Source: Mobula hypostoma
Taxonomy: Eukaryota
Direction of reading: 5' to 3'
Assembly: GCF_963921235.1 (NCBI RefSeq)
Contig: NC_086108.1
Location: forward strand, 24,056,001 to 24,120,000
DNA: 64,000 nt
Made by a program: the position numbers and the translations under genes. The stretch's first letter is position 1; each line of letters opens with the position of its first letter. The notes below the pieces were generated by a model, which did not search any database, was not told where the DNA came from, and saw only the letters and a program-made list of their open reading frames with translations. Below are positions 2,959 to 58,485 of this stretch, in pieces.

Positions 2959-3064
2959 CTCATTGAGGTCGACTTTTCTAATTGGTGTGTGGAGTAGAAG
3001 AATAATATCAAGGGTTGCCCACGTTTTCTTGCACACACCACGTTTATCCAGATTTGTTTGAGGA
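2959..3064 (-). CDS. Candidate exon of unidentified host gene (PQTNLDKRGVCKKTWATLDIILLLHTPIRKVDLNE; alternative frame LKQIWINV...)
   Basis: Acceptor ccagtttcag, donor GAG/gtatag; in phase with 6067-6124. Frame and donor are ambiguous. Confidence 0.35.
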
Positions 3065-3360
3065 CTGAAACTGGGTTATGTTCCTTGTTCTTAGTAGTTA
3101 AAGTTGACAAACAAGTTGCATGTGTAGTGGTCTATTCAAATCAAACACACAAAGTGTGTCCTTGTATTTCTCCATTTTTGTTGAACTGTCCAGGACAGAA
3201 ACATTGTGAATGCACCTTACAAACTGGCAATAAGGATGGAAGAGCAATAATATGTACTGATAGGACAACTAAACAAAATTAAGCCTTTAAATGAAGGTGA
3301 GAGTAAGGTGAATTCATGGAGCTGATTCTAGAGCTAGTAATTACTTGCCTTGCCTTAAGG

Positions 3361-3527
3361 AGACACAAGAGACTACAGATGCTGGAATTGAGAGCAATGC
3401 ATAAAAAATTGGAAGAACTCAGTGACTCAATCCGGATTAAGGATCTTGACCAAAACGTTGACTGTCCATTTCCCTCTATAGATACTGCCTAACCAACTAA
3501 GTTCTTCCAGCTTTTTGTGTTTCACTA
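3361..3527. repeat. Palindromic Penelope terminal-repeat (pLTR) remnant
   Basis: cagatgctggaat...gaagaactcag on the left and an inverted gttcttccagctttttgtgt on the right; decayed ribozyme region (aaaacgttgactg). Confidence 0.6.
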
Positions 3528-4489
3528 ACATTTGAACTCTTACTTTGAGCAGGTTCAAACCATAATAATCATACAGAAGCACCGAAGAAATAACAATATA
3601 TTTGCAGTTTGACCCAAATTGTGGCAATCTATGTAAGAGAGATACTCAGATTCAAGTGGTCTATATAGGAAGAATTTTTGTAAATGATTTCATAAGGCTT
3701 TTAGATCATCCATAAAACATACAGAATTTCTTTTAGAGCAACAAACAGAATGGAGACTGATGGCAAGAATATGCCAGCACAGAATGATGATAACCACATG
3801 GAAGTCATGTTTTTGAAATTGATGTGGGTTCTGTAACACACAATACAAAGTGGAATTTTTATTTTACATAATGGAATGCTAAAAGAATCTTTTGTTTAGC
3901 AAAGTAGTACGATATTGCATGTTTCAATCGTGAGGTGTATGAAATTGTGGAAAACTATATATTTCAAACTAGGAAGGAGAAGTAAGGACTTGTTTTGATA
4001 CTACAACTTTAGCAGCTTCTTATGATGTAACAGGATTGTGACTTAATTGACAAACAAATTCAGTCATGCGATGAATTATCACTCGAACACAAAACAAGCT
4101 TATGGAATGAAATTATCATTGAAGTTTCCCCAAACTACAAAGGCTTAGATGCCATAAGATAGAGATGATGAGTAATGTGATCAAGATAAAGTACAAATAG
4201 CCATGAGTACTGAAGAAGAAAATGTTTAAGTAAGTGACTTCATGGACATAAAGCATGAAAAAAGATGTTAGTGTTTATACAAAGTAGAAGTTACCTTGGG
4301 TATGAAACAGATGAAAATAGATTGCAAACACTAAAAAGTAGTAGCAATGGTGAAGACATGAAAACATTGTGGAACCTTGGCATTCCTTGACATGGTACAG
4401 CACAATGCTGGACTTTTTGCCAGATCTTGGAATAATACCAATGACATTACGTTAGTTACTGAAGAAAGATGAAAATAGAACTGGAGTAA

Positions 4490-5200
4490 AGAAAGTAAGA
4501 AATATGAGCAGGAGTGGGCTATTTGGCCTGCAAGCATGCTCCGCCATTTATCAGAATCATGGCTGATCTATCTCAGTGCCATTTCCAGTATCATCTCCAT
4601 ATCCCTTCAATCACTAAATACCTATCTTCCATAGGTTTATAGGGTAGAGAAATCCCAAGTTTCATTATCATCTGGCTGTAGAAATTTCTCTTCACCTCAA
4701 TCTTAACCAGCCTACTCCTTATTCTCAAATAATGCCCTATCAAGATGAGGTAAACATTCATCACCCTGCATTTAAGATGTCAACTCCTTAAAGAATTTTG
4801 AAAGTTTTGATGAGATCTCAAATCATCAACTAAGGACTACAGTCCCAGTTTACTCCATCATGCTCATGCGGAAAATGCCCCATTGAATCTTCACTACACT
4901 CATTCAGTAGCAAGTATATCCTTGCCAAGGAAGTATGTTTGTAATGATGTAATCCTGTAATCAAAACTTTTTCTAGCAAAAACTAACATACTATTTCCCT
5001 CCTAATTGCTTACTGAACTTGCATGATGGTCTGCATTGCCTTGTGCACAAGCACAACCACAATTCCTTGGCTATCAACACTTCCTGATTTCTCAGCAGTT
5101 AATAAATACCTTACCTTTTTATACAATATGCACCAAGGTGGGTGATCTTACATACGTCCTTTCTTTTGTCTGCCATGTTTTTATCCTCTCAGTCAGCTTG
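4490..5200 (-). mobile_element. Old CR1 3' fragment
   Basis: Reverse complement of a CR1 3' UTR (gagcaggagtgggctatttggcc...catggctgatct) followed by decayed ORF2 end. Confidence 0.7.
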
Positions 5201-6066
5201 GCAGACAATCTTATGAAAGACATGCCTAGGAGATAAGTCTTCAGTGGTTCACAATGAAGATCTAACCAGTTGTCTTAAATTTTTTAATGTCTAAAGATCA
5301 GTGATTTGGCACTTTATTCTCTCTTATTCTAAGGTATTGTATGTTTTGCCAATCAATTTCTCCACTCCACAAAGCTGAGATGAAAATTTTGGAAAGCATA
5401 AAAGAACCACAGTTGCTGGAAATCTGAAATACAAAAAAACTTAGCAGGTCAGGTGGTAACATATGGGAAGAAAAGGACATAGTATTTCAGGTCAATGATC
5501 CTTCATTAGACTGGATTCATTTGGAATCGGTGTTCAAAACCTCAGCATGGCTTCATTTCAAAGTGCACAGTGTCTTTGCAGGTTTGACTTTTGGGCATTT
5601 CTATATTCTCCGCATTTAGCACACAGCCAAAAAGAAGGTTATAATTCCAATCATACACTTCTAGAAAATCGATCAGTATTCAGAGAGCATAAATTTTGTA
5701 CGAGTGATAGCAATGCAGGCAACACATCACGTTGACATCAAATTACATTTTATGCAACCAATTTGATTGATTGATCTTATGCTTCATTCCTGAGCATTGC
5801 AACAGAGATAATTGTACAATAATCAGAAAGAGAAAGATTCAGTAATATTTCAGTGCACTTCAGGTGATAGTAAATTGATGCAGGCAGAGAACTGAAAGGA
5901 CACCTATGGTTTATCAAAAGAAATACTATTCGAACTTTTGTACCACAGTGTTGATCATCCCTCCAGTGTAATGAAAAATCTTTACCTAGTAAAGATTGGC
6001 AGAATGAAGCTGAAGCAATGTGGGAAGAGCTGAGTACAGAACTCAGCATGGAAATAGTTCACTTAC

Positions 6067-6124
6067 TGTCTGGAACTTGACAGGTCACCAAGTGAAAAGT
6101 GCACGCTTCCTATCTCAAGCACCT
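6067..6124 (-). CDS. Candidate exon of unidentified host gene (VLEIGSVHFSLGDLSSSR)
   Basis: Acceptor attttcatagtcag (alternative AG 4 nt upstream), donor gtaagt; only one open frame. Confidence 0.5.
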
Positions 6125-6397
6125 CTGACTATGAAAATGTACAGCTGACAGTAAAGAGTATGAAAGCCTTTTCATGTTAAAACCCCTTAGCAACTTAGGG
6201 TTTCTGAGGGCAGCTTCACCATCAGAAACCCCAATCCTTCAGTCTTAAAGTTACAGATGGAAATATGGCAAAGATTTTCCAGTAACTGGAACATTTCCAA
6301 ATATCCTTAATTTGATTGCACTGGTCAGGAAGTAAAAACTGTGAGATTACACTGAGTTGGGTTGCAGCTCTCAAGGAGCAACACTGCATGTGTAACA

Positions 6398-6630
6398 CAA
6401 GAACATAAGAATTAGAAGCAGGAGCAGGTCTTTCGGACCCTTGAGCCTAAACCACCATTCAACAATATCACTTTTCCCTGCATCATTCCCATATCCTGTA
6501 ATTCCTTTAATTTCCAGAAATAAATCTGTCTTGAATGCAAGAATTACTTAGTATCTACAACTCTGTAGGGTAGAGAATTACAGAGATTTATCTTCCCTTG
6601 AGTGAAGAAGTTTCTCATTTCAGTCCCTGA
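6398..6630 (-). mobile_element. Old CR1 3' end
   Basis: aagaacataagaattagaagcaggagcagg...gagtgaagaagtttctc is the reverse complement of a CR1 3' UTR. Confidence 0.7.
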
Positions 6631-7119
6631 TGGATCAAGCTGACAATTCTGTGGGTTCTTAGGGTATCTATATTTTAGATAAGTCACTAAACTGAAATAA
6701 CTCCTTTTTCCATTGTTGGAAATGTAAGATCATGTATCTCTGATAAAACAAATGAAGCAAACTCACTGGAGAAAGAACTACATTTCTTGCTCAAATTTCG
6801 CCTGACGTACTAGTTCAATAGTCATTGCTATTAAAAGATGAAAGGTTATCTTGACATTCAGTATAAGTATCCAGTTCAGATACTGAGATTGAATCTGTAT
6901 GCTACAACTAATGGCCAAACCATATACTTTATAAATAACTTGTTTCTGATAGAGACAGAACATAGTCAAGATTCAGGTAATTCTAAAAATCTATTGGTGC
7001 AAGTTCATCATCATTTGTCAATAGTTTGTAGGTAAAATTGATTGAAAGATTGAAAGGCATAAGGTGAAAAGGTGCTTATCCACTGTAATGAACAATTTAA
7101 GATGAGTCTAATTTCCCAT

Positions 7120-7810
7120 AAACTGATACTCTGCCTCCTGCACATAACTCCTATATTTTTTTCTACCTCTTGCCTGATTTCATTCCAGGTAAAACAAATC
7201 CTTTCTCCCCATAACTAAAACCTTGCAAATCAGGCAACATCCTGGTGAATTTCCTCTGCACCTCCTTCCTATAGTGAACTGTATACAATACTCCAAGTGT
7301 AGTCTAAACGGTAGTTCATAAGGTTGCAACATAATATCCCAATTTTGATATGTTCTGTCCTGATCTACGAAGGCAAACATGCCATATTCCTTACTTACCT
7401 TCGTATCTACCCATGTTGCCACTTTCAGGGTGACTATGGTCTTGAACCGCCTGGCTCCCTACCATTTACTGTGTATGTCCTATCTCACATTACATCCCAA
7501 GATACATCACATTGCAGTTGTTGGCATTAAATTCCATTTGTCAATACTCTTCCCAACATTCCGTCTGATCTATAACCTGCTGCAGCCTTAGACAACCTTC
7601 TTCACAATCTGTAACACCACCAATCTTATTGCCATCTGCAAACTTACAAATCAATCTTCCTAAATTGAAACCTGTTATTAATTTACATCAGCCAAAAAGT
7701 GTACCAGCACTGATCTCTGCAGTGTAACACTAGTTACAGACTTTCAATCATCATTTGCCTCCTTTCACCAAGCCAATTTTGGATCCAATGAGCCAGTTCA
7801 CCTTAGACCC
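7120..7810 (-). mobile_element. Degenerate CR1 RT fragment
   Basis: Minus-strand ORF 7180-7422 (GMFAFV...LHLEYCIQF); ccatctgcaaact corresponds to FADG. Confidence 0.75.
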
Positions 7811-7839
7811 TATATGCCTTAATCTCCCACTTTCTCATA

Positions 7840-8102
7840 GGGCGCAGTCCACCTAGAACGGAGATAAGGAAGAATTTTGTTAGCCAGAGAGTGGTGAATC
7901 TGTGGAATTCATTACCACAGGTGGCTGTGGAGGCCACGTGATTGGGTATATTTAAGGCAGATGTTGATAGATTAATCAAGGCATGATGGGATATGGGAAG
8001 AAGACAGGAGATTGGGGCTAAGAAGGAAATAGATCAGCCATGATGAAATGCCGAAGCAGACTTATGGGACAAATGGCTTAATTCTGCTCCTATACCTTAT
8101 AG
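7840..8102 (+). mobile_element. CR1 3' end
   Basis: cagagagtggtgaatctgtggaattc (QRVVNLWN) plus 3' UTR ending ctgctcctataccttat. Confidence 0.85.
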
Positions 8103-8704
8103 TTTCCATGCAGGATTTTGTTAAGTGTCTTACTTCGATCCATACAAATAACATCTACTGCAGTGCAGAGGGCATCAATTGGTTTCCAGTGGAATATTCA
8201 TCTGGACCATATGCAACTCCACATCTGGTGATGGTGTCCATCTATCATGTCTCTATTTCAGTTTCCATTGCAATACTTGTCCACATTGCCATATATTTTT
8301 AACTGTGTGTTAATGTCCAGCTAAATAATTCATAATTTGCAGCTTCTAGTCTGTTTGGAATCAAGTTTTATAGATTTACTGCAGCTTGGTCAGCAAGTGT
8401 ATCGGAATGTACCTAGTTTAACTTGTTAAATAGAGATTTGATCTAATAAACTGACCAAAACTCTCAGAGATATAAGGATTTGAAAGTAAACTTCTCTTCC
8501 TTTTGCAAAGGAAGAACAAACAGAAATCAGCTATTAAATCCCTGGGAGCTTTAGCCCAGATAGTGAAAGTTAATCTTTTAATAATTGATTTCATTATTCA
8601 ACTTTTTGAGCAGTTTCAAAGAATGTTTACTTTTTAAGAGTGCTGAAAACCTAGCACCAGCCTCCAAGCATTCACTCTTTTGGTCACTTCCACCAGTACC
8701 ACCA

Positions 8705-11520: not shown

Positions 11521-11559
11521 ATAGAATCGACAGATTGCTCTATTTTAACACAGAAAGGT

Positions 11560-11979: not shown

Positions 11980-14900
11980 CAGGGGTAGGCAACCAAGATA
12001 GTGAACAGTAAAGATGTCAGGAAGGACAGGCAGGTGATGTGCGATAAAGTTGCAGAGGAATCAAAGCAAGAAGTACCAAATACTGGACTTAAGGTGTTAT
12101 ACTTAAATGCATGCAGCATAAAGAATAAAGTGGATGATCTTGTCGTACAACTACAGATTGGCAGGTATGATATTGTGGCCATCACTGAGACGTGGCTAAA
12201 GGATGCATGTCTCTGGGAGCTGAACATCCAAGGATACATGGTGTATTGGAAGGATAGGCAGGTAGGCAGAGGGGGAGGCGTGGCTTTATTGGTAAGAAAT
12301 GATGTTAAATCATTAGAAAGAGGTTACATAGGATCGGAAGGTACAGAATCTATATGGGTTGAGCTAAGAAATCGCAGGGGTAAAAGGACCCTGATGGCAG
12401 TTATATACAAGCCTTCTAACAGCTGCAGTGACGTGGACTACAAATTACAACAGGAAATAGAAAAGGCTTGTCAGAAGGGCAGTATTATGATAATTGTGGG
12501 GGATTTTAACATGCGAGTGGATTGGGAAAATTAGATCAGCACTGGGTCTCAAGAGAGAGAATTTGTAAAATGTCTACAAGATGGCTTTTTAGAACAGCTT
12601 GTTGTTGAGCAAACAAGAGGATCGGTTGTACTGGATTGGGTATTGTGTAATGAACCAGAAGTGATTAGAGAGATTGAGGTGAAGGAACCCTTAGGAGGCA
12701 GTGATCATAACATGATTGAGTTCACTGTGAAATTTGAGAAAAAGCCAAAATCCGATGTGTCGGTATTTCAGTGAAGTTAGGGAAATTACAGTGGCATGAG
12801 AGAGAAACTAACCAAAGTTGACTGGAAAGGGACACTAGCGGGAAGGATGGCAGAGTCAGCAGTGGCTGGAGTTTATGTGAGAAGTGAGGAAGGTGCAAAA
12901 CAGATATATTCCAAAAAAGTAGAAATTTTCAAATGGAAAAAGGATGCAACCGTGGCTGACAAGAGAAGTCAAAGCCAAAGTTAAAGCAAAGGAGAGGGCA
13001 TACAAGGAAGCAAAAATTAGTGGGAAGACAGAGGATTGAGAAGTTTTTAAAGCTTACAAAAGGAAATTAAGAAGGTCATTAAGAGGGAAAAGATGAATTA
13101 TGAAAGGAAGCTAGCAAATATTATCAAAGAGGATACTAAAAGCTTTTTCAAGTATATAAAGAGTAAAAGACAGGTGAGAGTAGATATAGGACCGATAGAA
13201 AATGATGCTGGGGAAATTGCAATGGGAGATAAGGAGATGGCAGAGGAACTGAACGAGTATTTTGCATCAGTCTTCACTGAGGAAGAACATCAGCAGTATA
13301 CCGGACACTCAAAGGTGTCAGGGAAGAGAAGTACGCGCAGTCACACTTATGACAGAGAAAGTACTCAGGAAGCTGAATAGACTAAGGGTAGATAAATCTC
13401 CCGGACCAGATGGAATGCACCCTCGTATTCGGAGGGAAGTAGCTGTGGAGATTGCAGAGGCATTAGCAATGATCTTCTAAAAGTCAACAGATTCTGGCTT
13501 GGTTCCAGAGGACTGGAAGATTGCAAATGTCACTCTACTATTTAAGAAGGGGGCAAGGAAGCAAAGAGGAAATTATAGACCTGTTAGCTTGACATCGGTG
13601 GTTGGGAAGTTGTTGCAGTCGATTGTCAAAGATAAGGTTACTGAGTACCTGGAAGCATATGACAAGATAGGCAGAACTCAGCATCATGGTTTCCTTAAAG
13701 GAAAATCCTGCCTGACAAACCTATTACAATTTTTTGAGGAAATTACAAGTACGCTAGACAAGGGAGATGCAGTGAATGTTGTGTATTTGGGTTTTCAGAA
13801 GGCCTTTGACAAGGTGCTGCACATGAAACCGCTAAACAAGATAAGAGCCCATGGAATTACGGGAAAGTTACATACGTGGATAGAGCGTTGGCTGATTGGC
13901 AGGAAACAGAGAGTGGGAATAAAGGGATCCCATTCTGGTTGGCAGCGGTTACCAGTGGTTTTCCACAGGGGTCCATGTTGGGGCCGCTTCTTTTTACGTT
14001 GTACATCAACGATTTGGATTATGGAATAGATGGCTTTGCGGCTAAGCATGCTGATGATGCAAAGATAGGTGGAGGGGCTGGTAGTGCTGAGGAAACAGAG
14101 TCTTCAGAGAGACTTGGATAGATTGGGAGAATGGGCAAAGAAGTGGCAAATGAAATACAATGTTGGAAAGTGTATGGTTATGCACTTTGGCAGAAGAAGT
14201 AAACAGGCAGACTATTATTTAAATGGGGAGAGAATTCAAAGTTCTGAGGTGCAACGGGACTTGGGAATCCTCGTACAGGATACCCTTAAGGTTAACCTCC
14301 AGGTTGAGTCGATGGTGAAGAAGGCAAATGCAATGTTGGCATTCATTTTTAGAGGAATAGAGTATAGGAGCAGGAATATGATGTAGAGGCTCTATAAGGC
14401 ACTGGTGAGACCTCACTTGGAGTACTGTGTGCAGTTTTGGTCTCCTTATTTAAGAAAGGATGTGCTGACGTTGGAGAGGATTCAGAGAAGATTCACTAGA
14501 ATGATTCCGGGAATGAGAGGGTTAACATATGAGGAACATTTGTCGGCTCTTGGACTGTACTCCTTGGAGTTTAGAAGAAAGAGGGGGAACCTTATAGAAA
14601 CATTTTGAATGTTGAAAGGCATGGACAGACTGGATGTGGCAAAGTTGTTTCCCATGGTGGGGGAGTCTAGTACGAGTGGGCATGACTTAAGGATTGAAGG
14701 GTGTCCATTCAGAACAGAGATGCGAATAAATTTTTTTAGCCGGAGGGTGGTGAATCTGTGGAATTTGTTGCCACAGTCAACAGTGGAGGTCAAGTCATTG
14801 GGTGTATTTAAGGCAGAGATTGATAGGTATCTGTGTAGTTGGGGCATCAAAGGTTATGGTGAGAAGGCGGGGTGTGGGACTAAATGGGAGAATGGATCAG

Positions 14901-15118
14901 CTCATGATAAAATGGCGGAGCAGACTCAATGGACTGAATGGCCGACTTCTGCTCCTTTGTCTTATGGTCTTATGGTCTTAATTTGAGGCAAAATGTAACT
15001 AGATGTATTTAAATGGATAATTCCCACATTTCAAAATTTTTATGGCATTTATCTGGCCCACCGTCTGCTCATTAATACGCGATCTGGACCACAGAGGCAA
15101 AAAGGTTGCTGACCCCTG
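11980..15118. mobile_element. hAT (Charlie-like) non-autonomous element split by a CR1 insertion
   Basis: TIRs CAGGGGTAGGCAACC (11980) and GGTTGCTGACCCCTG (ends 15118); flanking 8-mers gtgtagat / gtttagtt match 6/8 and resemble the NTCTAGAN target. Confidence 0.75.
11996..14980 (+). mobile_element. CR1 LINE with nearly complete but disrupted ORF2 (APE endonuclease + RT)
   Basis: LYLNACSIKNK, DIVAITETWL, GGGVAL, VGDFN, KSPGPDG, NYRPVSLTS, QGSMLGP, HADD and RPHLEYC motifs spread over several frames; (CTTATGGT)n tail. Confidence 0.95.
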
Positions 15119-18185: not shown

Positions 18186-18245
18186 CTTGTCCCAAGCCAC
18201 TTGCTCGGAGCTCTCTGGGATTCAGAATATAGAGTGTGAAAGCTT
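18186..18245 (-). CDS. Candidate exon (AFTLYILNPRELRASGLGQ)
   Basis: Acceptor ccatttctgatatacag, donor AAG/gtaatt; phase 1 to 1 fits both neighbours. Confidence 0.45.
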
Positions 18246-18773: not shown

Positions 18774-18828
18774 CATTTGATTCATCTTTTGATGGGCCCA
18801 CACACAGGGCGGGAAGCCTTGAGCCCCA
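18774..18828 (-). CDS. Candidate exon (WGSRLPALCVGPSKDESN)
   Basis: Acceptor ctgctttgcctcatag, donor ATG/gtacaa; phase 0 to 1. Confidence 0.4.
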
Positions 18829-19170: not shown

Positions 19171-19198
19171 CTGTGTTGGATCTATAGTGCTCTGCTCC
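19171..19198 (-). CDS. Candidate micro-exon (EQSTIDPTQ)
   Basis: Acceptor actgtattgcag, donor CAG/gtaagc; phase 2 to 0. Confidence 0.45.
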
Positions 19199-22794: not shown

Positions 22795-22839
22795 CGAGAA
22801 TCAAAATGCACTTTCCACACACACTTCCCACAGTGCATC
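22795..22839 (-). CDS. Candidate exon (MHCGKCVWKVHFDS)
   Basis: Acceptor tttttgctcatcagctcatag, donor TCG/gtacca (weak); phase 2 to 2 fits both neighbours. Confidence 0.35.
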
Positions 22840-23644: not shown

Positions 23645-25360
23645 CTCTTCACTAGGGAAGACACAAACAATCTCCCGGATGTAATAGTGGCCAAAGGACC
23701 TAGGGTAATGGATGAATTGAAGGAAATTTATATTAGGCAGGAAATGGTGTTGGATAGACTGTTGGGTCTGAAGGCTGATAAGTCCCCGGGACCTGATTGT
23801 CTGCATCCCAGGGTACTTAAGGAGGTGGCTTTATAAATCGTGGACGCATTGGAAATCATTTTCCAATGTTCTATAGATTCAGGATCAGTTCCTGTGGATT
23901 GGAAGGTAGCTAATGTTGTCCCTCTCTTCAAAAAGGGAGGAAGAGAGAAAACAGGGAATTATAGACCGGTTAGCCTGCTGTCGGTGGTGGGAAAGATGCT
24001 GGAGTCAATTATAAAAGATGAAGTTATGACACATCTGGATAGTAGTAACAGGATAGGTCTGAGTCAGCATGGATTTACGAAGGGGAAATCATGCTTGACT
24101 AATCTTCTGGAATTTTTTGAGGATGTAACTATGAAAATGGACAAGGGAGAGCCAGTGGATGTAGTGTTCCTGGACTTTCAGAAAGCTTTTGATAAAGTCC
24201 CACATAGGAGATTAGTGGGCAAAATTAGGGCACATGGTATTGGGGGCAGAGTACTGACATGGATTGAAAATTGGCTGGCTGACAGAAAACAAAGAGTAGC
24301 AATTAATGGGACCCTTTCGCAATTGCAGGCGGTGACCAGTGGGGTACCGCAGGGTTCAGTGCTGGGACCACAGCTGTTTACAATATATGTTAATGATTTA
24401 GATGAGGGAATTAAAAGTAACATTAGCAAATTTGCCGATGACACAAAGCTGAGTGGCAGTGTGAAATGTGAGGAGGATGTTATGAGAATGCAGGGTGACT
24501 TGGACAGGCTGGGTGAGTGGGCAGATGCATGGCAGATGCAGTTTAATGTGGATAAATGTGAGGTTATCTACTTTGGTGGTAAGAACGGAAAGGCAGATTA
24601 TTATCTAAATGGAGTCAAGTTAGGAAAAGAGGAAGCTCAATGAGATCTAGGTGTTCTTGTACATCAGTCACTGAAAGCAAGCATGCAAATACAGCAGGCA
24701 GTGAAGAAAGCTAATGGCATGCTGGCCTTCATAACAAGGGGAATTGAGTATAAGAGCAAAGAGGTCCTTCTGCAGCTGTACAGGGCCCTGGTGAGACCAC
24801 ACCTGGAGAACTGTGTGCAGTTTTGGTCTCCAAATTTGAGGAAGGACATTCTTGCTATTGAGGGAATGCAGCGTAGGTTCACAAGGTTAATTGCCGGAAT
24901 GGCGGGACTGTCATATGTTGAAAGATTGGAGCGACTGGGCTTGTATACTCTGGAATTTAGAAGGCTGAGAGGGGATCTTATTGAAACATATAAGATTATT
25001 AAGGGATTGGACACGCTGGAGGCAGGAAACATGTTCCCGCTGATGGGTGAGTCCAGAACCAGAGGCCAAAGTTTAAGAATAAGGGGTAGGCCATTTAGAA
25101 CGGAGTTGAGGAAAATCTTTTTCACCCAGAGAGTGGTGGATATATGGAATGCTCTGCCCCAGAAGGCTGTGGAGGCCAAGTCTCTGGATGCTTTCAAGAA
25201 AGAGATGGATAGAGCTCTTAAAGATAGCGGAATCAAAGGTTATGGGGATAAGGCAGGAACTGGATACTGATTGTGGATGACCAGCCATGATCACAGTGTA
25301 TGGCGGTGCTGGCTCGAAGGGCCGAAGGACCTACTCCTGCACCTATTGGCTATTGTCTAT
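23645..25360 (+). mobile_element. CR1 LINE, 5'-truncated, RT domain
   Basis: ORFs 23840-24643 and 24683-25270 with NYRPVSL, DFQKAFDKV, GVPQGSVLGP and FADD; stops at CpG-like codons; ctattg tail. Confidence 0.95.
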
Positions 25361-25379
25361 AATATCAAGAATGTCTAGC

Positions 25380-27381
25380 ATGCTATTCCATGTCTACACC
25401 GCAGCATCAGTAGTAAGGATCAAGAAGGTAAGGACCAGGGAGGCACAGGAGTGCCTACAGGACTGCTTCAAATCAGTGGACTGGACTGTGTTCAGGGACT
25501 TATCTTCAAACCTGGATGAGTACGCCACAGTTGTTACTGACTTCATTAAAACCTGTGTGGATGAGTGTGTGCCTGTGAAAACTTACTGTACATTCCCCAA
25601 CCAAAAGCTGTCGATAAACCAGGAAGTTTGTAGTCTCTGAGAGCTAGATCTATGACATTTAAGTCTGGCGACCCAGGTCTAAAAAAGAAAGCCAGGTATA
25701 ATTTGTGGAAGGTTATTTCAAGAGCCAAGAAACAATTCTGAGATAGCTTGGAGATGATATCAGATGCACATCAACTCTGGCAGGGTTTGCAATCTATTAT
25801 TTCCTACAAAGCAAAGCCAACATCATGAACGGCAGCAATGTTTCACTACCAGACAAGCTCAACATCTTTCATGCTCCTTTGACAGGGAGAATAAAACCAC
25901 AGCTATGAGGATCCCTGCAGCACCTGGTGACCCTGTAACCTCTGTCTCGGATGCCAATGTCCGGCTGTCTTTCAAGAGGGTAAACCATCACAAGGCGGCA
26001 GGGCCAATGGAGTACTTGGTAAGGTTCTGAAAACCTGTGCCAACCAACAGGCAGGGGTATTCAAAGACATCTCCAGTCTCTCATTGCTATGGTTGGAAGT
26101 TCCCACCTGCTTCAAAAGGGCAAGAATTTTACCAGTGCCCAAGAAGAGCAGTGTGAGCTGCCTTAACGACTATATTCCAGTAGCGCTCACATCTATGGTG
26201 ATGAAATGCTTTGAGAGGTTGGTCATGACTAGAATCAACAGCTGTCTCAGGAAGGACCTGGACCCACTGCAAGTTGCCTATCGCCACAATAAGTCTACAG
26301 CAGATGTGTTCTCAATAGCTCTGCACATGGCCTTGGATCACATGGATAATGCAAATACCTATGTCAGGATGCTGTTTATTGACTATAGCTCAGCATTTAA
26401 TACCATCATTCCTACAGTCCTGATCGAAAAACTACAGAACCTAGGCTTCTGTACCTCTCTCTGCAACTGCATCCTCAGCTTCCTAACCAGAAGACTACAA
26501 TCTGTGCGGATTGGAAATAACATCTCCACCTCACTGACAATCAACAATGGTGCACTACAAGGATGTGTGCTTAGCCCATTGCTCTACTCTCTCTACACCC
26601 ATGACTGTGTGGCTAGTTATAGGTCGAATGCCATCTATTAATTTGCTGATGATACAACCATTTTTGGGAAAATTTCAGATGGTGAGTGAGGGCATACAGG
26701 AGTGAGATATACCAGTTAGTTGCGTAGTGTCACAGCAACAACCTTGAACTCAACATCAGCAAGTCCAAAGAGCTGATGGTGGACTTCATAAAGGCTAAGA
26801 CAAGGGAGCCAAACCAATCCTCATAGAGTGATCAGAAGTGGAGAGGGTAAGCAATTGCAAATTTCTGGGTGTCAATATCTCTGAGGACCTAAGCTGAATG
26901 CAACATATTGTTGCGGCTAAGAAGAAGGAAAGATAGCAGCTCTATTTCATGAGGAGTTTGAGGAGTTTTGGCTTGTCAAATAAAACACTCGAAAACTTCT
27001 ACAAATGTATCATGGAGAGCATTCTGACTGGCTGTTTCACTGTCTAGTATGGGTGGGGTGAAGGCACTACTGCACGAGATCGAAATAAGTTGCAGAAGCT
27101 TGTAAAACTAGTCAGCTCCATCATGGGTACTAGCCTCCGTAGTATGCAAGAACATTTAAATGGACATTGAACCCTTGAGCATCACCTCACTACTTTTTTA
27201 TTTGTTTTTCTTTGCACGAATCATTTTAAAATATTAAATTTAGCTATCTAATAAATGTATATGCTTACAGTAATACAGTTTTTTCTCTGTATTTGGTTAT
27301 GATGTATTTCATTGTACTGCTGTCATAAAGTTAACAAGTTTCACAACATATGACAGTGATATTAAACCTGATTCTGATTCT
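25380..27381 (+). mobile_element. Rex1/Babar LINE, disrupted
   Basis: [65 protein letters not shown]; tail attaaacctgattctgattct. Confidence 0.93.
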
Positions 27382-27679
27382 AACCGGCAAGGAAATTGAG
27401 TCATCGTGCTTTACTGCTCAGTATGACTTTTGTTAGGGATGTGGTTATTTGCACAGAACTGTCATTATTGACTAATAAAGTGAAATTCACAAATACTGTA
27501 CAATGATAACTTAAGAACATAAGATAATAAGAACAGGAGTGAGCCACTCGGCCCATCAAGCCTATCCTGCCATTCCATATGATCATGGCTGATCTGCCAC
27601 AGGCCTCATATCCTTTTCTAAATCATTGTCAACTTCCTAATCCTTCAAAATAAAACTACTTCCTTTCAAAGATCCTCTT

Positions 27680-30310
27680 TGTCTGCCGAGGGAGATTTCT
27701 GCCATCGTTCAGGTCGTAGTGTACCATTTCAGGCCAACATTAGGCAGGCACAGGATGATCTGGGGTAACTAGCAAGCATGAAACTACACACTCTAATGCC
27801 TTCACTGTCATTGCGGGAGAACTCAACCAGGCCAGCTTGGAGAAGTCTCTGAACGATTACCATCAACATATCACCTGTGGAACCAAAGGAGCCAACACAC
27901 ATTGTCAGTGTTTTACCATCATCAAGAATGCTTACCGTACCATCCACAGTTACACTTTAGAAAGTCTAATCTCCTATCTGTACTTCTCTTCCCAGCATAC
28001 AGCAGAGACTAAAGACTGGAGCACCAGGTGGTGAGGACCAAGATGGTATGCTGGTATGCTCAAGGGCCGGGCGGGGGGCAGGGGGCGCGGTGGAGCACTT
28101 AAGGACTGCTTTGTGTCAGTGGGCAGGACAATGTTCAGCAATTCATTATCGAGTCTGAAGGAATACACCACAGCTGTCACCGACCTCATCAAGACCTGTG
28201 TGGATGAGTGTGTCCCTTCGAAAACTTACTGGACAAACCCAAACTTAATGCATTGGATGAACCAGGAGATCTGTAGTCTGCTGAGGGCTAGATCCAGAAC
28301 AAGAGTATATTAAGAGCAAGAAAACAATTCCAATTGAGGTTAGAAATGGAATCAGATGCATGTCAGCTCCGTCAGTGATTTAAGGTCATTACTTCCTACT
28401 ATGTGAATGGCTGTGATGCTTCACTCCCAGATAGGCTCAATGCTTTTATGCATGCTTTGAAATGGAGAATAAAATGACACCCTGCAGCATCGGGTGACAC
28501 TAAATTCTCTATCTCAGAAGCCGACGTCATAACACCTTCCAGAGGGTGAAACCTCGCAAGGCTTCGGGCACTGATGGAAGGAGGAGAAGATGGCAGAGTG
28601 CTGCGCGTGCGCAGCTCTCCGGAGAAAAATGATATCGTATCCGTTAAATAGGGGCCATGGACAATTCTGATTTGATGGAGAATGGACGTGAAAGCACAGA
28701 GGAGCATCTGGAGAAATTTCTGAAACGCCCATTCGCTGCTGCCATTACTGTGTGGTCGCGAATCTTTCGGAGGATAGGCCTCAAAACCCCCGGTCTTGCC
28801 TGCTTTTGGCGACCGAGAAGGAGGTCGAATCATACAGACAGAGATGGCGCTGAGTACTTGGTGTCGGAGAGCTGATCAGAGCTCGAAGTTTTCGGATGAC
28901 TCAGAGTCGGATTGTGGTCAACATGGCAGGGAGAGTTTTTCTTCCCTCTCTTGTCTGCGTGAGATGTGGGACATTTGGGAAACTTTGAACTTTACTGTAC
29001 TCACGGACTTCTTCATCAAGTTATGGTATTGTTACACTGTTATATGTGGTAATTATATGTGATAATTATGTGGTTTTGTCAGTTTTTTCAGTCTTGGTTT
29101 GTCCTGTGTTTCTGTGATATCACACCGGAGGAAATAATGTATCATTTCTTAATGCATGCATTACTAAATGACAATAAATGAGGACTAGGTGTCTTCATAA
29201 TCCTAATCCTAATCCTACCTAGTAAGATTCTGAAGCCCTGTGTCAACCAGCTGGTGGGAGTGATCAAAAGACATTTTCAGTCTCCCTCCACTGCAACTCA
29301 CTGTTCCCACTTGCTTCAAAACTTCAAAAGGATAACAACTATATTCGTGCCCAAGAAGAGCAGAGTGAGCTGCCTCAAGGACCATCGCCCAGTGGCACTC
29401 ACAACTACTATGGTGAAGGTCTTTGAGAGATTAATTACGGCCAGAATCAACTACTGTCTAAGCAAGGACCTGGACCCACCGCAATTTGCCTTCGCCACAG
29501 TAGATCTACAACAGATGCAATCTCACTGGCTCTCCACTCGGCCTTGGTTCACCTGGACAACAGTAAATCAAATCTAGTTGACAATCTCCAAACCCCGTGT
29601 CTCTATATCTTCCTCTGCAACTGGATCCTTGACTTCTTCACTGGGAGACCATTGTTGGTGTGGATCAGAAATAACATCTCCTCGCTGACAATCAACACTG
29701 GTCCACATCAATGATATGTGCTTAGTCCACTCCCCTTTTCTTTCTACACCCACGATTGTATGGCTATACAGCTCAAAGGCCATCTAATCCTCCAGAAGTG
29801 GAAAGGGTGAGCAGATTCAAGTCCTAGGCTTCAACATTTCTGATGATCTATTCTGAGCCCAACATATTTATGCAATTACAAAGAAGTTACAACAGTGGCT
29901 ATATTTCATTATGAGTTTGAAGAGAATTGATATGTCACCAAGGACACACTGATTTCTACAGCGGTTCCGTGGAGAGCATTCTAACTGGTTATATCTCTGT
30001 CTGGTATGGACTGGCTGCTGTACAGGATCAGGAAAACTTGGGGAAAGTCGTAAATTCAGCCAACTTCACGAGCACAAGCCTCACTTGTATCAGAGACACT
30101 TTCTAAAGGCGACGCCTCAAAAAGGTGACACCCATCATTAATTCACCATCACCCAGGGTGTGCCCTCTTCTCATTGCTACCATCAAGAAAGAGGTATAGA
30201 AGCCTGAGGACACACACTCAATGCTTCAGGAACAGATTCTTCCCCTCCATTACCAGATTTCTGAATGGTCAATGAACCCACAAACACTATCTCAATAGCC
30301 TTTTTCTCTC
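27680..30310 (+). mobile_element. Rex1/Babar LINE, degenerate (APE end + RT), carrying an insertion at 28580-29216
   Basis: LPREI, ALKDCFVSV, VPKKSRVSCLKDHRPVALT, DLDPPQFAF; 3' end with aacagattcttcccc. Confidence 0.88.
28580..29216 (+). mobile_element. ~630-bp non-coding retroposon-like element, copy 2
   Basis: Starts GGAGGAGAAGATGGCAG, same 3' block as 8705-9338, (AATCCT)n tail; cleanly interrupts the KAxGxDG codons of the host LINE. Confidence 0.8.
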
Positions 30311-35218: not shown

Positions 35219-35247
35219 AAAGGGTAGACTAATTGACTGGCAACCAA
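35219..35247 (-). CDS. Candidate micro-exon (LVASQLVYP)
   Basis: Acceptor gatttgtccttag, donor gtaagt; phase 0 to 2. Confidence 0.4.
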
Positions 35248-35889: not shown

Positions 35890-35959
35890 CATGTGGTCGA
35901 AGGAATGGAGGCTGCCATTTTGTGAACTGTACTGATCGGATATGGTTTGATCAGAAAAA
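35890..35959 (-). CDS. Candidate exon (FSDQTISDQYSSQNGSLHSFDHM)
   Basis: Acceptor ttgtgtctactttcag, donor ATG/gtaaga; phase 2 to 0 (a second frame is also open). Confidence 0.5.
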
Positions 35960-39140: not shown

Positions 39141-39579
39141 TCTAGGTATTGAGGGTGATTACTGCACCAAAGGTAAAGCAGTAACAGAGTGCAGAATAAA
39201 GTGTTACAGCTACAGAGAAAGTGCAGTTAAAGTACACAATAAAATGCAAGGTCATAATGAGTTATGAGGTAGATTGTGAAGTCAAGATTCCATCTTACAA
39301 AGGACCCATTCAATAGTCTCATACAGAAGGGTAGAATTTGTCCTTGTGACTGAAGGTATGTGCTTTCAAGGCTTTTATATCTTCTGTCTGATGGTGGGGT
39401 GTGTGGGGGAAGAGAGAATGTCCAGGGTAGGTCTGGTCTTTAACTAAGCTGGCTATATTACTAAAGTAAAATGTAAACAGTCCATGGAGGTGAGGCTGAT
39501 GTGTTGAGCTGTGTTCACAACTCCCTGCAGTTTCTTCTTGTCGTCATGGGCAAAGCAGCTGCCATACCAAACTGTGATA

Positions 39580-42500
39580 CTTCACTACTGTGAAGCCTCT
39601 TCCGGTGATGCCTACACCGAAGAAGTTTAGATCCTCTCTTCGACGGGAGTTCAGTGAAACCATCTCTCACTGCTCCCCATCTGTAATTTCTTCGGCTCTT
39701 CAACTTTTCGACCACACTTTGACTCAAACTCGCTATCACAGCCATATATCCTTTCTTGGAACGTGCCTCCGTCGCCAACTTACTCCAGTTGGCTTTAGGA
39801 TACGTTTCCAAGCCTCTCAATTTGGACCTTCTGAGGATCCCAGGTACTCACATTTTATTGACTCTGCCTCTCGCCGCTTCTCCCGTCAAGCTCTGAAGGC
39901 GACGCTCTCCGCCATGAGGAGGTACTTGGTGTCCCTATCCCAGACCCTTCCACACCTTCGGGACACTTTCTTCGCCGTCTGTAATGGTCCTACCCGCTAT
40001 TTCATCCTCCGTCGGATCCACGCCTGCAATCGCAGTTTCTTTGACTTTGTCATGTTAGGCAAAGATCGCAAGATCCTACATCTACGGACTCCAGAGCCTG
40101 CCGGCCCCGACGCTAGCAGGCATGAACTCAGATTGCGGCCCCTGCCATTGATCTCGGCGGCTCCAACACCTCAGGGCATATTCAAAACCCGGACTCCAGC
40201 AACGACCATGGACACCTCCACAGCGATTACGCAACCACCAACTGCAATTCCAGCCTTGAACTCCAGGCCGGGTCTTTATGTGCTGCTGTTGTGACTCCCG
40301 TCTCCCCTTCCCCCACCACCACTCTGCAACCCCGTCTCCCTCAGATCCCACCGTCAACTCCCGGGCCCTCAGAGGCTCCATCTTCCTCTCACCCCAACCC
40401 TCCCCTCTCCATTGACACCCCTAGCCTCCCCCTCCCCCCTCTGATCCCAGCTCTCATCCGTGCCGGGTCTTTACTATCCCCTCCGACCTTCAACTGTCGG
40501 AGGCAGAGCGCTCTGTTCTCAGTAAGGGCCTCACCTTTGTCCCCCTTCGCCCACACCTCAGTGAGTTCCGTGTTCGCCACGATGCGGAACTTTTCTTCCG
40601 CCGTCTCCGTCTCCGAGCCTACTTCTTCGGCAAGGACTCTTCCACCCCCACCGATGACCCCTTCTCCCGTCTTCAACCCTCCTCTTCTTCATGGACACCC
40701 TGCTCTGGTCTTCTGCCTGCTCTGGATCTCTTTATTGCCAACTGCCGACGGGACATCAACCGTCTCGACTTCACTGCACCTTGTCCCCATTCCAACCTCA
40801 CTCCTTCGGACTTCGGAACGCTCTGCTCTCCACTCCCTCCGCACTAATCCTAACCTTATTATTAAACCCGCTGATAAGGGGGGGTGCTGTTGTAGTCTGG
40901 CGTACTGACCTCTACCTTGCCGAGGCACAGCAACAACTCGCGGATACCTCCTCTTATTTACCCCTCGATCGTGACCCCACTAAGGAGCACCAGGCCATTG
41001 TCTCCCACACTATCACCGACTTTATCCGCTCAGGGGATCTCCCATCCACTGCTACCAACCTTATAGTTCCCACACCCCGCACTTCCCGTTTCTACCTCCT
41101 ACCCAAGATCCACAAACCTGCCTGTCCTGGCCGACCTATTGTCTCAGCTTGCTCCTGCCCCACCGAACTCGTTTCTGCATACCTCAACTCTGTTTTATCA
41201 CCCCTTGTTCAATCCCTTCCGACCTATGTTCGTGACACTTCTCACGCTCTTAAACTTTTCGATGATTTTAAGTTCCCTGGCCCCCACTGCTTTATTTTCA
41301 CCATGGATGTCCAGTCCTTATATACTTCCATCCCCCATCAGGAAGGTCTCAAAGCTCTACGCTTCTTTTTGGATTCCAGACCTAATCAGTTCCCCTCTAC
41401 CACCACTCTGCTCCGTCTAGCGGAATTAGTCCTTACTCTTACTAATTTTTCCTTTTGCTCCTCCCATTTCTTCCAAACTAAAGGTGTAGCTATGGGCACC
41501 CGTATGGGTCCTAGCTATGCCTGCCTTTTTGTTGGGTTTGTGGAACGATCTATGTTCCGTGCCTATTCTGGTATCTGTCCCCCACTTTTCCTTCGCTACA
41601 TCGACGACTGCATTGGCGCTGCTTCCTGTACGCATGCAGAACTCGTTGACTTTATTAACTTTGCCTCCAACTTTCACCCTGCCCTCAAGTTTACCTGGTC
41701 CATTTCCGACACCTCCCTCCCCTTTCTAGATCTTTCTGTCTCTGTCTCTGGAGACAGCTTATCCACTGATGTCTACTATAAGCCTACTGACTCTCACAGC
41801 TATCTGGACTATTCCTCTTCTCACCCTGTCTCTTGCAAAAACGCCATCCCCTTCTCGCAATTCCTCCGTCTCCGCCGCATCTGCTCTCAGGATGAGGCTT
41901 TTCATTCTAGGACGAGGGAGATGTCTTCATTTTTTAAAGAAAGGGGCTTCCTTTCCTCCACTATCAACTCTGCTCTTAAACGCATCTCCCCCATTTCACG
42001 TACATCTGCTCTCACTCCATCCTCCCACCACCCCACTAGGAATAGGGTTCCCCTGGTCCTCACCTACCACCCCACCAGCCTCCGGGTCCAACATATTATT
42101 CTCCGTAACTTCCGCCACCTCCAACGGGATCCCACCACTAAGCACATCTTTCCCTCCCCCCCTCTCTCTGCATTCCGCAGGGATCGCTCCCTACACAACT
42201 CCCTTGTCCATTCGTCCCCCCCATCCCTCCCCACTGATCTCCCTCCTGGCACTTATCCGTGTAAGCGGAACAAGTGCTACACATGCCCTTACACTTCCTC
42301 CCTTACCACCATTCAGGGCCCCAAACAGTCCTTCCAGGTGAGGCATCACTTCACCTGTGAGTCGACTGGGGTGATATACTGCGTCCGGTGCTCCCGATGT
42401 GGCCTTTTATATATTGGTGAGACCCGACGCAGACTGGGAGACCGCTTTGCTGAACATCTACGCTCTGTCCGCCAGAGAAAGCAGGATCTCCCAGTGGCCA

Positions 42501-43057
42501 CACATTTTAATTCCACATCCCATTCCCATTCTGACATGTCTATCCACGGCCTCCTCTACTGTAAAGATGAAGCCACACTCAGGTTGGAGGAACAACACCT
42601 TATATTCCGTCTGGGTAGCCTCCAACCTGATGGCATGAACATTGACTTCTCTAACTTCCGCTAAGGCCCCACCTCCCCCTCGTACCCCATCTGTTACTCA
42701 TTTTTATGCACACATTCTTTCTCTCACTCTCCTTTTTCTCCCTCTGTCCCTCTGAATATACCTCTTGCCCATCCTCTGGGTCACCCCCCCCCCTCGTCTT
42801 TCTTCCCGGACCTCCTGTCCCATGATCCTCTCGTATCCCCTTTTGCCTATCACCTGTCCAGCTCTCGGCTCTATCCCTCCCCCTCCTGTCTTCTCCTATC
42901 ATTTTGCATCTCCCCCTCCCCCTCCAGCTTTCAAATCCCTTACTCACTCTTCCTTCAGTTAGTCCTGATGAAGGGTCTCGGCCTGAAACGTCGACTGCGC
43001 CTCTTCCTATAGATGCTGCTTGGCCTGCTGCGTTCACCAGCAACTTTGATGTATGTT
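39580..43057 (+). mobile_element. Penelope-like element, near full length (N-terminal domain, RT, GIY-YIG endonuclease, 3' pLTR), frameshifted
   Basis: HISFLGTCLRRQLTPVG (39590-40294), LSEAERSVLSKGLTFVP (~40495), KPADKG, LPKIHK, GRPIVS, DVQSLYT, GVAMGTRMGP, RYIDD, YYKPT, VIYCVRCSRCGLLYIGET and PDGMN. Confidence 0.97.
42961..42996 (+). ncRNA. Minimal type I hammerhead ribozyme in the Penelope terminal repeat
   Basis: AGTC-CTGATGA-AGG-gtctcgg-CCT-GAAAC-GTC-GACT: helix I AGTC/GACT, intact CUGAUGA and GAAA cores, helix II AGG/CCT, palindromic ACGT helix III, GUC cleavage triplet. Confidence 0.88.
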
Positions 43058-47099: not shown

Positions 47100-47132
47100 C
47101 TCACTACCCATTTACGAGCAAAACTGGAGTCC
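47100..47132 (-). CDS. Candidate micro-exon (DSSFARKWVV)
   Basis: Acceptor ttgttttcctcatacag, donor GAG/gtatga; only phase 2 is open and it matches the 50389 exon. Confidence 0.45.
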
Positions 47133-50388: not shown

Positions 50389-50408
50389 ATTGGATTTTTC
50401 AATGGAAC
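50389..50408 (-). CDS. Candidate 20-nt micro-exon (VPLKNP)
   Basis: Acceptor atatttagttttgcag, donor gtaagt; phase 0 to 2. Confidence 0.5.
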
Positions 50409-51656: not shown

Positions 51657-51708
51657 CACGAGCCCCATTCCGTCAGACAACTCAACAAACTCGACTCCCA
51701 AGTTCTGC
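51657..51708 (-). CDS. Candidate exon (QNLGVEFVELSDGMGLV)
   Basis: Donor GTG/gtgagt, acceptor aattgcag (weak pyrimidine tract); phase 2 to 0. Confidence 0.5.
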
Positions 51709-51943: not shown

Positions 51944-51992
51944 CTCCACAGCTTCTGCAGTTTGCTTGAAGAAAGGGTGGGGATTAGATCAT
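51944..51992 (-). CDS. Candidate exon (DLIPTLSSSKLQKLW)
   Basis: Donor GAG/gtaagt; acceptor ctttatctttgttgaaagtcacag (in-frame alternative AG at 51998); phase 1 to 2. Confidence 0.55.
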
Positions 51993-52319
51993 CTGTGACT
52001 TTCAACAAAGATAAAGGCCAATTAGCATGCTCTAATTAGCACAGTTAGAATTTTTAAACGGAAGATTAAAAGAAAATAAGTGAGTTAGTGACCTAGTGAT
52101 GGATCAATAGCTTCGGTCTTCACATGGCCCTGCACTGATTTCAATCCATAGCTACGCACTAAGACTTCCTCTCCTTCATAATGCCAACAAGTACTTTCTT
52201 CACTTCTGCCTCCAAACCGGTGATTTCTGCAGTGAAATGTTAATATATTTCGAATTGGTATGATAGATTTTACTTTGAGATCCTGCAGAATATTTCACTG
52301 AGAACAACAACAGTTGGTT

Positions 52320-53199: not shown

Positions 53200-54330
53200 A
53201 GTCCTTTTGGTGAAGGTACTCCCACAGAGCTGCTGAAAAGTAGTTCTAAATTTTGACCCAGTAAAAGATAAATGCCATTCCGGATGGTGTATATGACCTA
53301 GAAAGGAAATTGTAGATAGTCCACGTGTGGCTTCTGTCCTGGTTCTTTTTGGTGGAAGGTGCTGTCAAGTAGTCTGGACTAGTAACTGCACTATATGCTG
53401 ATCGTGGAGAAGCTGTGCATCCGGTGGTAAATAGGAAACCCTAATGCAAACTGCTTCACCTGGTTGATGTAGATTTTGCTGAGTACTGATGAAACTTCTT
53501 TCATCACTCTCTTGACATGAGATGTACAAATAGTGAATGATTTTGGCTCCCCAGGAAGCAAATCCCATGCTACTTTCAGTCTTACAGACACCACAGTTTT
53601 GAAACTGGTGCAGTTCAGTTTCTGGTGAATGGTGAGCCTTGGCGCTGCATCATCCCCCTCCCCTTTACAAGGGGGTAGTGGAGGTACAATTTGTCCATCT
53701 GTGCTGATCACCCCATCCTTGACTAAGCTGTTCCACCGTGAACACGATCTGTTATGACTCAATATGATGCTTTCAGATCAGGTCATGCATAGCACATACC
53801 TCCGCCGCTCTGCTCAGGTGTGTTTCTGGGGTACAGGGGCTAGCGACCCTTGTGCCTGTTCTATGTACTTGACATATGATTTTTTTTGTGTTCTATTGCT
53901 GAGCAGCAGTGAACCATCTGATTGGCCTATCAGAGTTCTCTTTGGGAACTAGTTGACTTGATCAGCATTTCTGATCTGGCTATTGTTCACGATTGCACTT
54001 AATAAAAAAAAAGACTTATAATATCAGTGCAACTGACTGGCAAGCGTGGTGATTAGACTCCATCCTGATGGAAGTGCTCACTGCCTACCATCTGTGTAGC
54101 AGAAATGCTATAAGCCACTCATCAGCTCATGCTTGAACGATGTCTTGTTCTGGGCATGGACTGCATCATTTACCAAAGTATTGTGAATGAGGCTGAACAT
54201 TGTTCAATCGTAAGTAAACATTAACATTTCTGTCTTTATGATGTCATTGATGTAGCAGCTGAAACTCCTCCCCTGGGGCTGGAACGACAGGGCACCGGCA
54301 AGCACAACCCCCACCTTTGTGTGTGTAAGG
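53200..54330 (-). mobile_element. Very old CR1-like RT remnants
   Basis: gtcattgatgtagcagctgaa (reverse of FSCYIND) and ctgaacattgttcaatcgtaagtaaac (decayed FADD region). Confidence 0.45.
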
Positions 54331-55765: not shown

Positions 55766-55800
55766 CTTCCTGTACAGCCTCCCCACTGTCCTCCAACCAC
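55766..55800 (-). CDS. Candidate micro-exon (WLEDSGEAVQE)
   Basis: Acceptor tcttgttttggaataag, donor AAG/gtacgt; phase 2 to 1 fits both neighbours. Confidence 0.5.
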
Positions 55801-56949: not shown

Positions 56950-57590
56950 GTATGCTGGCATTTATAGCGAGAGGATTCGAGTACAGGAGCAGGGAGGTAC
57001 TACTGCAGTTGTACAAGGCCTTGGTGAGACCACACCTGGAGTATTGTGTGCAGTTTTGGTCCCCTAATCTGAGGAAAGACATTCTTGCCATAGAGGGAGT
57101 ACAAAGAAGGTTCACCAGATTGATTCCTGGGATGGCAGGACTTTCATATGATGAAGGACTGGATTGACAAGGCTTATACTCGCTGGAATTTAGAGATTGA
57201 GGGGGTATCTTATTGAAACATATAAAATCCTAAAAGGATTGGATAGGCTAGATGCAGGAAGATTGTTCCTGATGTTGGGGAAGTCCAGAACGAAGGGTCA
57301 CAGTTTAAGGATAAAGGGGAAGCCTTTTAGGACCAAGATGAGGAAAAACTTCTTCACACAGAGAGTGGTGAATCTGTGGAATTCTCTGCCACAGGAAACA
57401 GTCGAGTCCAGTTCATTAGCTATATTTAAGAGGAAGCTAGATATGGCCCTTGTGGCTAAAGGGATCAGGGGATATGGAGAGAAGGCAGGTACAAGGTTCT
57501 GAATTGGATGATTAGCCATGATCATACTGAATGGTGGTGCAGGCTCGAAGGGCCGAATGGCCTACTCCCGCATCTATTTTCTATGTTTCT
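56950..57590 (+). mobile_element. CR1 3' portion, same subfamily as 230-1418
   Basis: Long near-identity with 777-1418; TTTCTATG tail. Confidence 0.95.
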
Positions 57591-57619
57591 AAATGTTATG
57601 AGAATATAGAGGACTAGAA

Positions 57620-58120
57620 ACACACTTCAGGGATGCCTGCTTAGTCCAGTGCTCTACTCTCTGCATTCATGATAGTGTGGCTAGGCACAGCCCAAATACC
57701 ATCTATAAAGTTGCTGATGACACCATAGTTGTATGTAGAATCTCAGATGATGATGAGGAGGCATTTAGGAACAGGATAGATCTGTGGTTGAATGGTGTTG
57801 CAACAACAAACCTTGCACTCATTGTCAGAATGATCAAGGATTTGACGTGAACTTCAGAAAAGCAAGGTCAGGGAATGACCAGTCCTCATTGAGGGGTCAA
57901 CGGTGGAAGGGTGAATAGCTTCAAATTGGTGGGCATCAGCATTACCGAGGATCTATCCTGGGTCGAACATATTGATGCAGTCACAAAGAAGGCACACCAG
58001 AGGCTACACTTCATTATGAGTTTGAGGAGATTTAGTATGTCATCAAAGACTAACAAATTTCTACAGATGTATCGTGGAGAACATTCTAACTGGTTGCATC
58101 ACCATCCAGTGTGGAGGATG
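57620..58120 (+). mobile_element. Degenerate Rex1/Babar RT fragment
   Basis: QGCLLSPVLYSL, KVADD, ITEDLSW..HIDAVTKKAHQRLHF. Confidence 0.8.
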
Positions 58121-58407
58121 GTAATAAGAGCTACACTCTTGATATTTCTTCTCCATTTTCTATTTGTCTCATCTCTTAAATTGCAGTTACTGTTGGTGTA
58201 ATTGTAATGCTTTCATTATCACATCAAATTGCTGGGAAGTATATGTCCAATGATTTACTAACCTAATGTAACAAAGTCATTTATTAAAAGTTGGGCCTCC
58301 TTAGTCCATGAATTCTAATGCTGCACTCCACAAGACAGTTATTTGCTTAATCACAGCAATCGTTCAGCTTTATAAACATGAAGCACCATTTGGCCAAACA
58401 CACTTAC

Positions 58408-58485
58408 CTCTTCAAAGCATTGGCTTTCCCTTGAGGAGCATGCTTAGTATTTGTGGGACTCAGCCAAATTTTGTTAATTGCAGTG
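58408..58485 (-). CDS. Candidate exon (TAINKIWLSPTNTKHAPQGKANALK)
   Basis: Strong acceptor tttttatattaatttacag, donor GAG/gtaagt; 78 nt with only one open frame (phase 2 to 2). Confidence 0.6.

Follow-up and report, generated by a model that had tools for sequence, protein, structure and literature searches.

A chain of 14 short segments on the minus strand of a 64,000-nt stretch of the Mobula hypostoma genome (RefSeq assembly GCF_963921235.1, contig NC_086108.1, positions 24,056,001 to 24,120,000; hereafter the window) was analyzed as a candidate spliced gene. The chain most likely reflects a real minus-strand gene rich in introns, as indicated by a step in GC content at the splice donors, by retroelements lying antisense to the chain, and by an excess of T over A on the minus strand. 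On balance, we judge it probable that the segments form the 3' part of a protein-coding gene and that most of the exons are right. The window has a GC content of 42% and contains no N, and it is dominated by reverse transcriptase (RT) frames of the long interspersed nuclear element (LINE) type.

Chain structure and reading frame

The chain had been proposed in an initial annotation, with segments chosen by eye. All 14 segments were found on the minus strand where they had been placed, each with AG before it and GT after it, and all lay outside the repeat mask of this analysis (Table 1). Joined, they gave 718 nt (mean 51.3 nt), and the candidate introns between them measured 235-12,379 nt. Frame 2 of the join was open over 239 codons and encoded a peptide identical to that of the initial annotation, and the other two frames contained stops. 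The borders, the non-repeat location and the in-phase join were thereby reproduced. It was also correct that several segments, exons 6 and 13 for example, are open in the required frame alone; exon 2 is instead open in all three. The term micro-exon was overstated: half of the segments (7/14) were at most 51 nt long, and three were at most 30 nt. Four lengths were multiples of three and ten were not. Exons 1-7 joined directly in frame, and three of them were open in the needed frame alone.

In segment 14, whose donor is weak, the frame continued past that donor for one codon and then met a TAG stop (2953-2955), and for this reason the donor is probably not used. Poly(A)-type hexamers followed downstream (2764, 1957, 1724, 1718, 1628, 1601, 1513 and 1420; part of them may be repeat-derived). 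Given the readthrough to TAG and these hexamers, segment 14 is better taken as what is probably the last coding exon, and no longer as the donor-bounded internal exon of the initial annotation. The gene would start upstream of the window, on the minus strand, with the stop at 2953-2955 as its predicted end. Exons upstream of 58485 would probably lie further 5', beyond the window.

GC step, retroelement orientation and T>A skew

Each of the 14 segments was richer in GC than its flanks. The contrast was +0.10, compared with a null of 0.013 ± 0.023 (3,170 open AG..GT candidates; p = 0.0003). A stronger test was independent of the acceptors: the GC content of the DNA after a donor was subtracted from that of the 25 nt before it. 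For strong donors, this step was +0.148 in the chain (n = 8) and −0.004 for the other, equally strong donors (n = 44). At a lower donor cut it was +0.121 in the chain (n = 10) and −0.008 elsewhere (n = 105). A GC step of this kind is described for exons that are recognized by exon definition within long introns, under the name 'differential architecture' (PMC9225289). The peptide was also more protein-like in composition than open intronic stretches (4.9 versus −15.5 ± 8.3 bits, p = 0.006).

Two further signs, both independent of the choices made in the initial annotation, pointed to a minus-strand unit. All 10 RT fragments with an open frame of at least 100 aa (9 elements) had plus orientation, opposite to the chain, and the RT fragments of the minus strand (n = 8) were decayed. 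An antisense bias of retroelements has been described for human genes and introns (PMC3517506). In non-repeat DNA, the minus strand had a T>A skew of 0.031 ± 0.012, and in mammals and bony fish TA skew is reported to be positive along genes (PMC2927911). The comparisons cited from these two sources concern human, mammals and bony fish, not elasmobranchs.

Splice-score and phase controls

Splice sites were scored with vertebrate splice matrices, and in-phase chains were built by dynamic programming. In addition, a blind search combined the splice chain scoring with a coding term. Eight of the 14 chain donors were within the top 1.1% of 3,590 GT sites, and four were weak (segments 35219, 22795, 18774 and 2959). 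Donors scoring at least 7 in non-repeat DNA numbered six on the minus strand and two on the plus strand, and three of those six belong to the chain. The blind search on the minus strand recovered four exons of the initial annotation exactly and seven of its donors, with a score of 39.1, compared with 17.6 on the plus strand. Segments 8, 9, 11 and 14 had composite scores below zero in this search. A test for an AG-exclusion zone was non-significant (p = 0.12).

Several results weigh against a gene. The best in-phase chain of the plus strand had 26 exons, 1,884 nt and a score of 65.5, and that of the minus strand 31 exons, 2,200 nt and a score of 62.0. Reciprocal-best candidates likewise gave similar chains on either strand. 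Because the plus strand yields an equally good chain, phase fit by itself is no evidence for more than chance. The claim that the chain exceeds chance on phase grounds was thus not confirmed, the plus strand having produced the kind of chain that the initial annotation itself had counted as a refutation. Donors scoring at least 4 in non-repeat DNA showed no minus excess (26 minus, 28 plus). The blind minus-strand score was within the range of 12 shuffles (28.0 ± 11.2, maximum 47.5). When all 20 merged RT fragments were counted, they were split 12 to 8 (p = 0.25); the RT queries had been drawn from plus-strand open reading frames (ORFs), the 100-aa cut was set post hoc, and a 108-aa RT remnant was present on the minus strand (44597-44923). 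A G>C skew was absent (−0.011 ± 0.015). The segments had been picked by eye, perhaps with a preference for GC-rich, coding-looking pieces, and the p values for GC and composition are therefore optimistic. Lastly, single-exon frames compared with proteins of 71-2,000 aa gave seven candidates for exon 1 and two for exon 14, itself a weak exon, with no match in either case.

These controls bear most directly on chance, that is, on a chain whose phases happen to fit, assembled from cryptic AG/GT sites within introns or between genes. Plus-strand and shuffled sequence equaled the chain in length or score, and strong donors were as common on the plus strand as on the minus strand. Chance is nonetheless distinctly improbable, because the GC step sharply separates the strong donors of the chain from other equally strong donors, the GC contrast is positive in 14/14 segments, and retroelement orientation and T>A skew independently indicate a minus-strand unit. 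The proposal of an intron-rich gene is partly upheld, on the GC step, the antisense retroelements and the skew; its chain length was reproduced by the controls, and four of its members are weak.

Exon models

No other segment reached the composite score of exon 1 (14.3), and the blind search returned its exact borders. For exon 3, a rival acceptor gives a form of 21 nt (51944-51964), which was the form picked by the blind search, and for exon 4 a rival acceptor gives a form of 75 nt (51657-51731). Exon 11 ranked only 5th by splice score among the 22 phase-compatible fillers of its slot. The initial annotation had cautioned that some members could be chance matches. This applies to the weak segments: exons 8, 9, 11 and 14 may be wrong, as may the acceptors of exons 3 and 4, and about ten exons are probably right.

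Table 1 Candidate exons of the minus-strand chain and retroelements within its candidate introns. Positions are those of the window.
Feature	Position	Strand	Length (nt)	Phases	Remarks
Candidate exon 1	58408..58485	-	78	2->2	acceptor best of 6, donor best of 9 locally
Candidate exon 2	55766..55800	-	35	2->1	donor top 0.4%; blind search exact; three frames all open
Candidate exon 3	51944..51992	-	49	1->2	donor top 0.1%; acceptor 2nd of 6
Candidate exon 4	51657..51708	-	52	2->0	donor top 0.4%; acceptor 3rd of 10
Candidate exon 5	50389..50408	-	20	0->2	smallest; acceptor best of 12, donor best of 9
Candidate exon 6	47100..47132	-	33	2->2	acceptor best of 6, donor best of 9; needed frame alone open
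Candidate exon 7	35890..35959	-	70	2->0	acceptor and donor locally best; found by blind search
Candidate exon 8	35219..35247	-	29	0->2	weak; acceptor 6th of 12; composite −1.3
Candidate exon 9	22795..22839	-	45	2->2	weak donor, 4th of 11; composite −2.2
Candidate exon 10	19171..19198	-	28	2->0	acceptor best of 17; donor top 0.2%; found by blind search
Candidate exon 11	18774..18828	-	55	0->1	weak; GC contrast +0.18
Candidate exon 12	18186..18245	-	60	1->1	donor top 0.9%; composite 10.1
Candidate exon 13	6067..6124	-	58	1->2	donor best of 9, acceptor 2nd of 12; needed frame alone open
Candidate last coding exon (14)	2953..3064	-			initially 2959-3064, extended to TAG 2953-2955; weak acceptor and donor
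Long LINE-type element, endonuclease- and RT-like frames	11989..14986	+			antisense, candidate intron 12
Block of three LINE-type RT fragments	23837..30105	+			antisense, candidate intron 8
Retroelement, 668-aa open RT frame plus upstream frames	39578..42664	+			antisense, candidate intron 6

The weak members also bear on an alternative in which the minus-strand transcription unit and its splice sites are real and its frame is partly a product of how the segments were selected. Such a unit could yield a non-coding RNA after splicing, could be a pseudogene in decay, or could have a true exon set different enough to encode another protein. The dependence of the frame on exons 8, 9, 11 and 14, the rival acceptors of exons 3 and 4, and the failure to find a protein relative would all fit. 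The direct in-frame join of exons 1-7, three of them open in the needed frame alone, and the protein-like amino acid make-up argue for a coding frame, and we regard this alternative as unlikely.

Other sites were seen along the minus strand. Between exons 11 and 12, an acceptor at 18563-18590 has a TACTAAC-type branch-like motif directly before its AG, and it is possibly an alternative exon or a cryptic site. Further well-scoring AG..GT segments outside the chain (53800-53825, 22028-22132, 32249-32293 and 9704-9779) could be missed or alternative exons. The acceptor regions of exons 6 and 11 (47100-47160 and 18790-18860, minus strand) share a 38-nt look-alike stretch, which was non-significant against a null inflated by overlapping draws. 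Exon duplication at the DNA level was not supported in this comparison, to which the same inflated null applies.

Protein identity searches

The predicted product of 240 aa had no 19-residue hydrophobic stretch (maximum 1.01) and no transmembrane-like stretch. Its charge was near-neutral (25 K+R, 27 D+E), and it contained four cysteines. No internal protein repeat was detected by self-alignment (24, compared with a null of 28 ± 5).

Sequence databases were queried with contiguous single-exon frames of 20-40 residues, a design that diverged or very long (>2,000-aa) proteins would escape. The protein collection includes elasmobranch entries, as a skate SHIP1 was retrieved from it. Pfam searches with 12 and then 9 exon frames gave nothing above the cut-off. 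Of six queries against PDB sequences, five returned empty and one had E ≥ 1.4 at best. Two queries of the ESM Atlas gave no usable match (best 0.78), and an Rfam scan gave 0 matches. A HMMER search of exon 14 against 1.84 billion representatives returned one match (P0001), a one-member tandem-repeat ORF summing weak matches, which was rejected. Another protein, P0006, reached a pairwise z of 5.5 among nine targets, but its alignment was scattered and gappy and it was treated as chance. The literature search, weak without a gene name and with supplements outside its reach, returned nothing on such a gene. The label 'uncharacterized' is upheld to the extent that the family was unrecognized here too, with the qualification that it depends on short single-exon queries.

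Four family resemblances, to PLC, SHIP, C2 and hotdog proteins, were suggested by likeness seen by eye and compared with the spliced product by script. The PI-PLC profile (Y box plus C2) was built from 21 proteins, the loci out of 118 with a long enough open frame; it gave −2.1 bits, and sub-profiles and hhalign did no better. Against SHIP1 of a skate and a SHIP2-like protein (P0003 and P0004, with domains verified in Pfam), in a comparison aimed at the phosphatase C-terminus and the second C2, the z values were 0.3-0.4 and the semi-global p values 0.3-0.8. Background on the phosphatase-C2 module of SHIP2 is given in PMC5550278. A broad C2 profile, built from 31 domains of bacteria and 11 of PLC proteins, scored the chain at −0.7 bits, a value reached by 16% of shuffles, and it also scored the true SHIP C2 domains at only −0.6 and −1.3. 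Hotdog thioesterase profiles (PF03061) seeded with 4, 11 and 12 proteins gave scores below zero, equaled by 16-28% of shuffles.

A degenerate member of the PI-PLC Y-C2, SHIP 5-phosphatase-C2 or hotdog thioesterase families is thus very improbable. The resemblance behind it was seen by eye only, and the PLC score (−2.1), the SHIP z values (0.3-0.4) and the negative hotdog scores all speak against it. What remains in its favor is that the broad C2 profile misses true SHIP C2 domains too, so very divergent C2 folds are possible.

During these comparisons, 67/401 genomes sampled from one bacterial phylum were seen to have Pfam C2 domains (PF00168), and 0/301 in the sample of another. An inositol 5-phosphatase motif was matched in ten viral contigs, mostly labeled as giant-virus metagenome-assembled genomes, and an open frame with the motif was present in nine of them.

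Transcript data

Contigs of four of the six runs named below, their RNA status guessed, were examined over 2900-22899, which is 20 kb of the 55.5-kb span. Among the joints listed, all were repeat-derived and none agreed with a proposed junction. The bin of exon 13 was uncovered in 4/4 runs, with RNA status again guessed and with repeats swamping the tables, and this was counted neither way. Over 46000-52300, no RNA source was listed, and six runs added by sample or species label, RNA status guessed, all had a share of 0.00, which was likewise counted neither way.

Repeats of the window

The LINE-type element in candidate intron 12 is one that we take to be CR1-like. The retroelement in candidate intron 6 is apparently young and presumably Penelope-like, as judged from its GIY-YIG-type C-terminus. 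Inverted repeats of 173 bp with 96.5% identity (32604-32776 and 33518-33690) enclose ~740 bp and probably mark a non-autonomous DNA transposon of young age. A LINE 3' end is present twice (218-1417 and 56950-57599), in the same orientation and with 92% identity over 641 bp.

A model for the candidate gene

If the minus-strand gene is real, it is likely a constitutively spliced gene of small exons, for which the junctions are predicted here. Exon definition would let the major spliceosome select these small exons among introns of 0.2-12 kb, with strong donors and the GC step as aids. Because 10 of the 14 lengths are not divisible by three, inclusion of the exons would have to be joint. Joint inclusion would yield one soluble globular C-terminal region and not a series of variants that skip exons. 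The C-terminal half appears, as judged by eye, rich in beta-strands, and a membrane- or protein-binding sandwich domain is our best guess, one that no tested profile supports. Expression may be low or limited to a few tissues, as a guess; together with the small exons, this would be why the gene was missed in annotation.

More tentatively, and on the doubtful side, the family could occur in cartilaginous fishes alone or have disappeared from the well-studied vertebrates, its fold being beyond current profiles and its gene having at least 14 constitutive, phase-mixed exons of 51 nt on average.

At present the chain is a candidate annotation and a worthwhile lead, not new biology, with a small chance of a new protein family. 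A real gene of this kind would be invisible to ORF- and homology-based annotation. It would bring a protein of unrecognized family into the gene set of cartilaginous fishes, from which the content of ancestral jawed vertebrates is inferred. With mostly frame-shifting tiny exons over 55 kb, it would serve well, too, as a natural test case for exon definition.

Comparison with known systems

The strand pattern of the C-terminal half is, by eye, like that of SHIP1/SHIP2 (INPP5D/INPPL1) and of PI-PLC Y-C2, but there was no significant similarity. Genes with amplified micro-exons of the SCPP-like type have repeated acidic Ser-rich exon units; the chain has no internal repeat and a near-neutral charge. 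The micro-exon genes (MEGs) of schistosomes are like the chain in that short exons make up most of the coding region (PMC7263636). The MEG exons are described there as multiples of three, whereas in the chain only 4/14 lengths are divisible by three and most skips would shift the frame. For this reason, the chain is not of the micro-exon cassette type, in which exons can be skipped. The chain also resembles ordinary vertebrate genes whose small, constitutive exons are recognized by exon definition (PMC9225289), and it does so in its GT-AG borders, its long AT-richer introns, the GC step at the exon edge, and its mixed phases. Its mean of 51 nt across 14 exons in a row is below that of most vertebrate genes.

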